Source: Planctomycetia bacterium (GTDB taxonomy: Bacteria; Planctomycetota; Planctomycetia; Pirellulales; UBA7805). From it: DNA of 50,016 nucleotides. The stretch covers positions 1 to 50,016 of the forward strand of contig JAIOQB010000260.1 in NCBI GenBank assembly GCA_021413585.1, read 5' to 3'. A program made the translations under genes and the position numbers. Positions 31,539-32,201 of the stretch are shown one piece after another. Within the stretch, counting starts at the first letter, position 1, and the number at the start of each line of letters is the position of its first letter. The notes under the pieces were generated by a model, which ran no database searches, was not told where the DNA came from, and saw nothing but the letters and a program-made list of their open reading frames with translations.

Positions 31539-31751
31539 GGCGTGCTGGTTGATTTGCCAAAGGTTGCCTGTTGGTGCCTCACCCATTCTACAAATCGCAT
31601 TGACTACCACGCAATTGCGGGTCGCCACGCTCCCCCTCAACGCGCGGGTATTCGGATTGCCCGGATAGAGAGAAAACTGCGGTGGCCGCCACACTGTTGG
31701 CCCATTTCGCAATTCCGGCGTTAATACGTTCATTTTGTGGCGAACCAAATG

Positions 31752-31787
31752 TGACCCTGCTGCGTCTTAGGGATACTTAAAATTGCA
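31752..31787 (+). promoter_or_regulatory. sigma70-like promoter candidate of cassette copy 2 (ATGTGACC-17-TACTTA)
   Basis: conserved with copy 1 (gcgaaccaaNtgtgacNctgNNgcgtcttagggatacNta). Confidence 0.35.
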
Positions 31788-31858
31788 GATAAACGGGCCG
31801 GGTGACTGACACGACTGTCCCTTCGGCCTTTAATACCTGAGCTTACCGAGAGTTGGCG

Positions 31859-31963
31859 ATGAACCACTTACCGCTGATTTCATCCACACAAAAACGCACG
31901 ACAGCGACGGGCTCCTTCGCGTATAGCGCGAATTTGCCCCCATACGATCCTTTGCGCCGGTGA
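31859..31963 (+). CDS. conserved 34-aa small ORF / candidate leader peptide (copy 2): MNHLPLISSTQKRTTATGSFAYSANLPPYDPLRR
   Basis: paralog of 16361-16465 ORF; stop codon embedded in GGTGACACC complementary to GGTGTCACC of downstream terminator. Confidence 0.5.
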   Translation: MNHLPLISSTQKRTTATGSFAYSANLPPYDPLRR

Positions 31964-31991
31964 CACCTGGCAAACGGCGGCCTTGATCCAA

Positions 31992-32025
31992 GGCCCGGTG
32001 TCACCATGACGCCGGGCCTTTTTGT
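31992..32025 (+). terminator. rho-independent terminator of cassette copy 2
   Basis: aaGGCCCGGtgtcaccatgacgCCGGGCCttttt. Confidence 0.7.
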
Positions 32026-32201
32026 TTGCGCTGCCGACGACTGCTAGAATGCTCGGTTGTTGCGTTCGACGCTCGGATCGTTGGGAATACTTGCTCGGAA
32101 CAACTGAGAACCACCAGACGGCAATGTACGCCTCACACCAACTGGCACGATGCCGGGAATATTAAACCACCATTCACGTCCTACACCGATCGGAGGTCAA
32201 C

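Follow-up and report, generated by a model that had tools for sequence, protein, structure and literature searches.

The stretch analysed here, 50,016 nucleotides of contig JAIOQB010000260.1 from a Planctomycetia bacterium (assembly GCA_021413585.1) and hereafter called the window, carries two intact copies of a short cassette, each composed of a promoter-like motif, a small open reading frame (ORF) and an intrinsic terminator. Copy 1 (16243-16525, + strand; motif 16243-16268, ORF 16361-16465, terminator 16492-16522) is followed, 64 nt after its T-run, by an array of 33 tRNA genes with tRNA-Phe(GAA) as the first member (16590-23048, +). Copy 2 (31742-32023, +), which is the main subject of this analysis, stands ahead of a cluster of genes for a ubiquitin-like (Ubl) protein, Y-RNA-like modules, a Ro60/Rsr-like protein and an E1-like protein. 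Compared over 31740-32033 and 16241-16535, the copies share 78% identity across 295 nt (blastn E = 2.9e-64). In copy 2 about 175 nt lie between the end of the T-run (32023) and the start of the next ORF (32202), which is on the same strand, and the ORF located 5' of the cassette (30378-31538) is on the - strand. A sequence-only reading of this DNA had described a second cassette with a promoter-like box, a small ORF and a terminator, placed directly before the first gene of the cluster on the same strand and with a divergent gene upstream, and each of these sequence facts was found to be present.

The cluster opens with the gene of a 74-aa Ubl-like protein (32202-32426, +), preceded by a GGAGG Shine-Dalgarno sequence at 32193-32197. 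This protein has 421 homologues, and all those with an organism name are planctomycete; the C-terminus ...RPEAVFG is invariant, with one orthologue extended by GK after VFG, and the AlphaFold2 model has a bb-a-bb topology (b, strand; a, helix; pLDDT 82; Foldseek best E = 0.3). Four tandem Y-RNA-like modules with tRNA-like T-arms (32638-33365, +), read as repeats from the sequence and built of a 5' part CCCGUACCCAACGGCA...UACAAAC, the T-arm GGUUCGA.UCC and a 3' part GCUUUUGCGACUUGUACGGG, lie between the Ubl and Ro60-like genes; two of the four gave weak YrlA matches (32682-32759, 36 bits, E = 9e-6; 33060-33133, 28 bits), below the gathering score of 69. The 541-aa protein encoded at 33499-35124 (+) was identified as Ro60/Rsr-like by structure comparison, showing a TROVE HEAT-repeat ring and a C-terminal vWA domain next to the Y RNA, and this identity was not recovered by sequence with Pfam, NCBIfam, PDB phmmer or a 7-sequence profile. 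According to Pfam and NCBIfam scans the following + strand genes encode an AAA+ ATPase (35240-36718), a 351-aa protein with no family assigned (36793-37848), a Prok-JAB protein (37818-38261) and a ThiF/E1-like protein (38200-38901). Given these members, the labels Ubl, Y RNA, Rsr and E1 proposed in the earlier reading are reasonable. The order of Ubl, Y RNAs, Ro60-like protein, a protein of about 330-350 aa, JAB and ThiF/E1-like protein is kept in the related loci L005-L018 and L027, with JAB not called everywhere, and the AAA+ ATPase is an addition of the window to this conserved order. Neither a Ro60-Ubl-E1 cluster nor a Ubl conjugation set tied to Ro60/Y RNA was found described in full-text searches of the literature.

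Altogether 12 distinct cassettes were compared, two from the window and ten from other Planctomycetota contigs of independent assemblies. They were gathered by a metagenome pattern scan, a peptide search, a covariance model and an inspection of the contigs of Ubl homologues, and the alignments were partly hand-trimmed. The metagenome pattern returned 5 stretches and missed variants such as L017 (peptide NLPPFNRLR), which was later found by the covariance model; since the pattern of the contig scan was too strict, the taxonomic range of the cassette is probably underestimated. The three Chloroflexota matches to the back-translated pattern of this contig scan (AGYGCN..., which included non-conserved Ser-Ala codons) were discarded as chance, and no cassette was present in the viral contigs searched. 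The contig L004, being 99.8% identical to the window, gave no comparative information. The covariance model, built on the 3' half of the cassette, scored both window copies at about 91 bits, and this value together with the recurrence in unrelated metagenome assemblies indicates that the cassette is not a chance arrangement. The window copies are each other's nearest cassette (83% over the 3' half), above any other, which fits a lineage-specific duplication at the time when array and cluster were separated.

The small ORF of copy 2 (31859-31963, +) comprises 34 codons and a UGA stop and encodes the peptide MNHLPLISSTQKRTTATGSFAYSANLPPYDPLRR with a conserved C-terminal motif. A GAGAG sequence at 31848-31852 (+), 7-11 nt before the ATG, is a putative ribosome-binding site, and C(C/T)GAGA-N5-8-ATG is kept in 9 of the 10 cassettes with an NLPP peptide, the remaining one (L022) having GGAAAGACGAGATG instead. 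The length of the ORF varies from 33 to 43 codons over the 12 cassettes and the N-terminal half of the peptide is variable, while the peptide ends in (A/V)NLPP(Y/F) in 10 of 12 cassettes, nine of them with the complete NLPPYDP(L/M)R, after which a single variable residue precedes the UGA. Pairwise comparison of codons -10 to -2 gave 116 synonymous and 36 non-synonymous differences, the latter almost all from the outlier L017; the Leu and Pro codons vary (TTG/CTG/CTA, CCC/CCT, CCA/CCG/CCT) and the second codon positions are fixed. Owing to this protein-coding signature of the C-terminal codons the leader ORF is very probably translated. A homology search with three concatenated peptide variants as query found only 3 related proteins (P0121-P0123) among 5.8 billion sequences, from which it follows that gene finders nearly always miss the leader ORF. 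The leader contains no codon run for one sensed amino acid, as codon identity varies and the amino acids are fixed. In several relatives an upstream ATG is located within a conserved GACAAUGGCC (L024 370-425, L025 1330-1385, L010 about 4935-4980, L009 about 4553-4620). This ATG opens a short upstream ORF in L010 and L009, and in L024 and L025 it lengthens the leader peptide in frame at the N-terminus (MA(H/D)..DCASR.PANRE.E-M...); the window copies are without it.

The 3' part of copy 2 is able to form two exclusive structures. The first is the intrinsic terminator AAGGCCCGGUGUCA-CCA-UGACGCCGGGCCUU with its U-run (31990-32023, +), in which a 14-bp GC-rich stem (31990-32020) is followed by T5; over the cassettes this stem has 11-14 bp and a U-run, and an alignment of nine of them showed 100% paired cells, the only changes being between G-C and G-U. 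The second is a competing antiterminator helix, whose 5' arm (GGUGACACC.GG; 31959-31970, +) contains the UGA stop (31961-31963) and pairs with the 3' arm CC.GGUGUCACC (31995-32005, +), which overlaps the 5' arm of the terminator. This helix encloses an inner hairpin GGCCUUG-AUC-CAAGGCC (31979-31995, +), whose AAGGCC is common with the terminator 5' arm and which is predicted in the transcripts of all cassettes when they are cut before the terminator 3' arm (87% of cells paired). In general terms the 5' arm extends from the last sense codon over the UGA to 6-9 nt beyond it, the 3' arm consists of GGUGUC(A/G)C, and the pairing may be written as GGUGACAC/GUGUCACC.

Over the 12 cassettes 95.8% of the cells of the antiterminator helix are paired, compared with 19-52% in slid registers, and its covariation score was reached by 0 of 500 shuffles. 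Three of its ten pairs are changed on both sides; among these double changes are one from G-C to U-A, which involves the middle base of the last codon, and one from G-C to A-U beside the stop codon in L027. The last sense codon accordingly varies (R, W, L, M, S), following its RNA pairing partner and not the peptide. All transcripts truncated before the terminator 3' arm fold to the stop-codon helix with -16 to -28 kcal/mol, and in L010 and L013 even the full-length minimum free energy (MFE) structure retains it.

These results bear directly on a simpler explanation, according to which the cassette is an independent gene for a 34-aa small protein with its own promoter and a constitutive terminator, the cluster being transcribed from a site at about 32108-32133 and the array by leak-through or from an unrecognised promoter, with the helix only stabilising the 3' end of the mRNA. 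The strong selection on the peptide motif at the amino-acid level would be expected of such a gene, as would the strong terminator, which is the MFE structure in most copies. What such a gene would hardly require is a UGA at a fixed site within a covarying helix that overlaps the terminator, and this geometry is found in 12 of 12 cassettes, including two (L027 and L006) in which the peptide motif is lost and the UGA is retained at the same position of the arm. Considering also the gene arrangement described below, the small-protein explanation appears rather unlikely.

The invariant UGA equally invites the opposite regulatory logic on the same anatomy, namely an arrest of the ribosome at the UGA, brought about by the nascent peptide (with release dependent on RF2, as in TnaC), so that the 5' arm is covered and termination is efficient, and induction follows the loss of arrest or of leader translation. 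Besides the universal UGA, the last 10 residues of the peptide, which are its most conserved part, would occupy the exit tunnel with the ribosome at the stop. However, the residue before the stop is variable and the peptide matches no known arrest motif; the search for similarity to known arrest peptides gave family members only. Nothing in the present data separates arrest at UGA from a stall at Pro-Pro, and this logic is given a fairly low probability, well below that of the attenuator described further on.

Both window copies fold with a z-score of -3.3, and together with the discrete unit of promoter and terminator this could be taken for a trans-acting, possibly dual-function small RNA (sRNA), in which the terminated transcript of about 250 nt is induced together with array and cluster and its 3' structure serves for binding of a target or protein; attenuator-derived sRNAs, such as rnTrpL, are known. 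Against this the length and sequence of the 5' untranslated region differ among cassettes, the conservation of the ORF obeys codon logic and not structure, and the cassette has a fixed position immediately 5' of genes. In addition, no riboswitch, T-box or known leader family of Rfam matched, the only hit being the terminator-like STnc390 (19 bits, E = 0.62). An sRNA function of this kind is thus regarded as improbable.

The gene arrangement in the relatives is the next line of evidence. All eight further cassettes with downstream sequence stand directly 5' of a tRNA gene on its strand, so that window copy 2, with zero tRNAs before Ubl, is the only exception, which is difficult to reconcile with an independent small-protein gene. 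Seven cassettes are followed, at a distance of 22-106 nt from the T-run, by a gene of the tRNA-Phe(GAA) type; in L027 a tRNA-Phe comes after about 55 nt, in L006 a tRNA-Arg after about 30 nt, and the contig of L026 stops just past the terminator. In five cassettes the first tRNA follows the T-run at a distance of only 22-39 nt, which also counts against the small-protein explanation, as this leaves too little room for another promoter and the arrays could hardly be transcribed except through the terminator. In L009-L012 and L027 an array of 24-35 tRNA genes lies immediately 5' of Ubl on the same strand, and wherever the contig reaches the start of the array (L009-L011, L027) a homologous cassette stands there.

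Thus the Ubl / Y-RNA / Ro60-like / JAB / E1 cluster follows the cassette after 1 to 35 tRNAs in five architectures: 35 tRNAs in L027, 28-33 in L009-11, 4 in L013 and 1 each in L017 and L006, to which window copy 2 adds the case of none. The 494-kb contig of L013 parallels the window: besides the cassette that precedes tRNAs and Ubl it has another at the head of a 20-tRNA array (L020). The conditional read-through over the whole cluster that the sequence-only reading had proposed is supported by this comparative series as well as by the competing covarying helix, the support being strongest in L017 and L006 because no other promoter motif is recognisable before Ubl there, a fact which also speaks against the small-protein explanation with its separate cluster promoter.

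Several features of the spacers, arrays and flanks were recorded beside these comparisons. The spacer from the terminator to the next gene contains short lineage-specific direct repeats (window 16528-16589 and 32040-32105; L009 4815-4880), with the units GCGCTCG x3 after copy 1, GCTCGG x3 after copy 2 and GGGTGATKTGGGG x3 in L009, and no tRNA remnant was detected in 32026-32200. In the first tRNA-Phe-like gene behind the cassette of L013 (9337-9440; the same in L019 and L014), which received no ARAGORN call, about 30 additional nt (GGGCTGGTAGCTGAGATGCGGCCACCGTCGCGTGAGCGTTGGTCGGCGTCGGGCTGAAAAACC...) are inserted behind the D-arm region, and the L020 copy has a comparable insertion. Inside the tRNA array of the window, between tRNA-His and tRNA-Thr, an ORF for a 198-aa HNH endonuclease is located (21051-21647). 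In L027 (14616-21596) two RlaP genes, PTS_2-RNA (Tpt1/KptA-like), an ADP-ribosyl-glycohydrolase, a NUDIX protein and a serpin lie beside the array and cluster; in L010 (1027-3502) RtcB, an HD protein and an RbfA-like protein are divergent from the array; and a DSPc-type phosphatase is found nearby in L009-12 and L006. Elsewhere in the window (27496-27542, - strand) an Acido-Lenti-1 RNA match of 40.7 bits, compared with a gathering score of 37, was obtained in this planctomycete contig, outside the namesake phyla of the family.

Turning to the promoter, it is characteristic of extracytoplasmic function (ECF) sigma factors that they recognise a -35 'AAC' and a -10 'CGT' placed about 16-17 nt apart. 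Copy 2 begins with GAACC-N16-CGTCT (31742-31767, +), which has such ECF-sigma-like elements and an A/T-rich stretch just 5'. GAACC-N15/16-CGTCT is exact in 10 of 12 cassettes and in the wider form GAACC-N15/16-C(G/T)(T/C)CT common to all, being the only block common to the promoter region of the cassettes, and the motif is also found at the Ubl-proximal sites of five relatives. In the 50-kb window the exact motif occurs twice, both times at a cassette head, with 0.44 occurrences expected by chance, and in related loci it occurs once or twice each, always on the + strand and ahead of a tRNA array or Ubl. Thus GAACC-N15/16-CGTCT looks like a promoter of an ECF-type alternative sigma factor; among the 20 window ORFs scanned, which cover part of the window, no sigma-70-family domain was matched with Pfam. 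Two other promoter types were considered and rejected. A sigma-70 promoter gave no + strand match, the spacing from TTGAAA/TTGTGA to TATAGA/TACATA being 19-20 nt and inconsistent among cassettes, and the -24 GG / -12 GC element of sigma-54 (TGGCAC-N5-TTGCW, up to 2 mismatches) is absent from 16100-16600 and 31600-32200.

The box TGTGAC(C)-N17-TACTTA, which had earlier been taken for the promoter, is indeed present at 31750-31779 (+) and has the counterpart TGTGAC(A)-N17-TACATA in copy 1. It overlaps the GAACC motif, with TGTGAC lying in the spacer of the latter, and as a '-35' element TGTGAC is not sustained by the relatives, where its place is taken by TGCAAC, TGAAAC, TCGCAC, TGGGAC or GGTCGC. 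The 3' hexamer of the box is included in a semi-conserved GTA(T/C)AGA block, which usually follows CGTCT at a distance of about 8 nt and may represent the region of the transcription start. In the window (31742-31760 and 16243-16261) and in L009, L010, L013, L020 and L006 another G(A/N)AAC-like half-site, for example GAACCCTTTGAAACC, starts 9 nt after GAACC; together with the GTA(T/C)AGA block this half-site could form a direct-repeat regulator site or a second promoter that overlaps the first. Both the half-site and the block are missing from the Ubl-proximal motifs.

The view that the cassette is the only obvious promoter for the cluster is doubtful, since a second near-consensus motif, GAACC-N16-CGCCT (32108-32133, +), lies 94 nt before the Ubl ATG as a putative promoter and is the only further relaxed match in the 50-kb window. 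GAACC-N15/16-CGTC occurs at the equivalent position directly 5' of Ubl in L005, L007, L009-12, L013/16 and L027, and the Ubl-proximal site of L008 is a related GAACCACCAGA...TGTCT. Such a motif directly 5' of Ubl, shared by the window with many relatives, is what a small-protein gene separate from the cluster would call for. The T-to-C change of the window motif hits the -10 'CGT', so that this motif may have decayed to a weak remnant or may still work as a second promoter. The order of cassette, second motif and Ubl is kept in L009-13 and L027, which points to dual control by regulated read-through and by a cluster-proximal promoter of the same type, and on the strength of this comparison dual control seems the most likely arrangement for the cluster.

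Taken together, a short leader ORF, an intrinsic terminator, an antiterminator exclusive with it and an ORF placed so that the ribosome may choose between them were all found, and the cassette is, in our estimation, rather probably a ribosome-mediated (leader-peptide) transcription attenuator ahead of the tRNA array or the Ro60 cluster, switched on when translation falters. Which way the switch works, where the ribosome stalls, which sigma factor is involved and what signal is sensed are inferences from this anatomy. A ribosome arriving promptly on or near the UGA would cover the 5' arm of the antiterminator, so that the terminator would form and transcription would end at about 32023. A ribosome that is late, absent or held at Pro-Pro-Tyr-Asp-Pro would leave this arm free, the antiterminator would form first and the RNA polymerase would read through. 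The leading edge of a ribosome lies about +15 nt from the P site according to the established toeprint geometry, and with a Pro-Pro codon in the P site it would stand a few nt short of the arm. As the Pro-Pro codons are fixed at -8/-7 in the ten NLPP cassettes, they would make a natural pause point.

Read-through would lead in most relatives to the supernumerary tRNA array and then to the Ubl / Y-RNA / Ro60 / JAB / E1 cluster, and in the window, where the unit is duplicated, copy 1 would gate the 33-tRNA array and copy 2 the cluster directly. In this way the cassette would act as a cis-acting sensor of translation capacity that connects spare tRNAs and an RNA/protein quality-control module to translational stress. 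The attenuator model predicts that a change of GGTGACAC to GGTCTCAC would lose read-through and that the compensating GTGAGACC would restore it. A more specific form of this proposal, in which ANLPPYDPLR-X-UGA is a new nascent-peptide sensor of translation status that by attenuation turns on a complete back-up tRNA set and the Ro60/Y-RNA/Ubl-E1-JAB module, is offered tentatively, being less probable than attenuation as such; Pro-Pro/EF-P-dependent elongation, tRNA damage and ribosome shortage are the candidate signals.

Several observations weigh against attenuation as the control of the cluster. The full-length MFE structure of copy 2 is the terminator, with -39.8 kcal/mol for the whole fold compared with -27.6 for the alternative, so that the default state may be strongly off. 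Most pairs of the stop-codon helix never vary, because the fixed UGA is included in them, and the sample amounts to 12 cassettes of one phylum. The promoter model is not uniform, as CTCT(C/T) replaces CGTCT in L017 and L027. Transcription of the cluster may also start from the second motif at 32108-32133 without any contribution of the cassette; in L007 and L009-12 Ubl has its own motif with no leader between motif and Ubl, and the 10 kb 5' of Ubl in L007 revealed no cassette. Finally, the peptide is conserved more strongly than a simple timing model needs and could have a function of its own.

Should the proposed sensor of translation status be real, tRNA arrays and bacterial Ro60 systems would share a cis-encoded trigger in Planctomycetota. 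The presence of one leader switch before both kinds of genes, together with their physical linkage, suggests that they answer the same signal, read by the translating ribosome. This bears on the question of how long, horizontally spread tRNA arrays stay silent and become induced, as well as on the triggers of bacterial Ro60/Y-RNA systems, and it would connect a ubiquitin-like conjugation module to RNA quality control. The cassette is a short mutable element with a start codon, a Pro-Pro motif, a stop position and two competing helices as its parts, and it may serve as a recognisable annotation marker for the head of these transcription units.

Among known systems the leaders trpL, hisL, pheL, leuL and thrL of Enterobacteria have the same principal parts, namely a short translated leader ORF, an intrinsic terminator and an antiterminator sharing the terminator 5' arm, the ribosome position being decisive. 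Unlike them, the planctomycete cassette has no run of codons for a single amino acid, its peptide sequence being kept and its codons not, it shows no obvious '1:2' pairing that would enforce termination without translation, and its targets are tRNAs and an RNA quality-control cluster instead of amino-acid biosynthesis. Nascent-peptide arrest leaders, such as TnaC (with a UGA stop), ErmCL/ErmBL and those of ABCF genes (vmlR, lmo0919), resemble the cassette in a conserved C-terminal stretch for the exit tunnel and in downstream read-through or translation on perturbed translation; the cassette differs in having no sequence similarity to them and no known ligand or antibiotic, and stalling is only hypothesised.

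Beside these arrest leaders, the closest in flavour are the leaders of Salmonella mgtA (mgtL) and mgtCBR (mgtP), in which consecutive Pro codons are present in the leader ORFs and slow translation shifts the stem-loops and leads to transcription of the operon (PMC3641672; for EF-P and coupling, PMC5021804). The cassette shares the consecutive leader Pro codons and differs in peptide, organism and target, as well as in its canonical intrinsic terminator where some of these leaders involve Rho, and its dependence on EF-P is hypothetical. The Salmonella rsr-yrlBA-rtcBA operon is controlled by RtcR and sigma-54. Like the planctomycete cluster it combines a Ro60 orthologue and tRNA-like Y RNAs in a stress-inducible unit linked to tRNA damage; however, no sigma-54 element lies near the cassettes and no RtcR is evident, control would be exerted by leader and terminator, and the partners are Ubl, JAB, E1 and AAA+ proteins and not RtcBA.

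The long tRNA array of Anabaena sp. PCC 7120 (trn operon), the one such array whose control has been studied, is silent and becomes induced by translational stress together with rtcB, and its promoter has 9-nt direct repeats over the sigma-70 -10 and transcription start site as a putative repressor site (PMC8421152). It is comparable to the cassette loci, whose arrays are likewise supernumerary, expected to be silent until induced and tied to RNA repair, represented there by rtcB and here by Ro60/Y RNA, with RtcB beside the array in L010, and a general translation-stress signal would match both its induction and the RNA-repair neighbours in L010 and L027. The tandem 9-nt repeats TGTWNWWNWNNWGTANYNWA have 0 matches in the window at up to 1 mismatch, and leader peptide and terminator are in turn absent from Anabaena; full-text searches of the literature gave no description of a leader peptide ahead of tRNA arrays. 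The attenuator principle is known, and it is the lack of regulatory codon runs, the conserved peptide motif and the putative tRNA and Ro60/Y-RNA/Ubl targets that set the planctomycete cassette apart.

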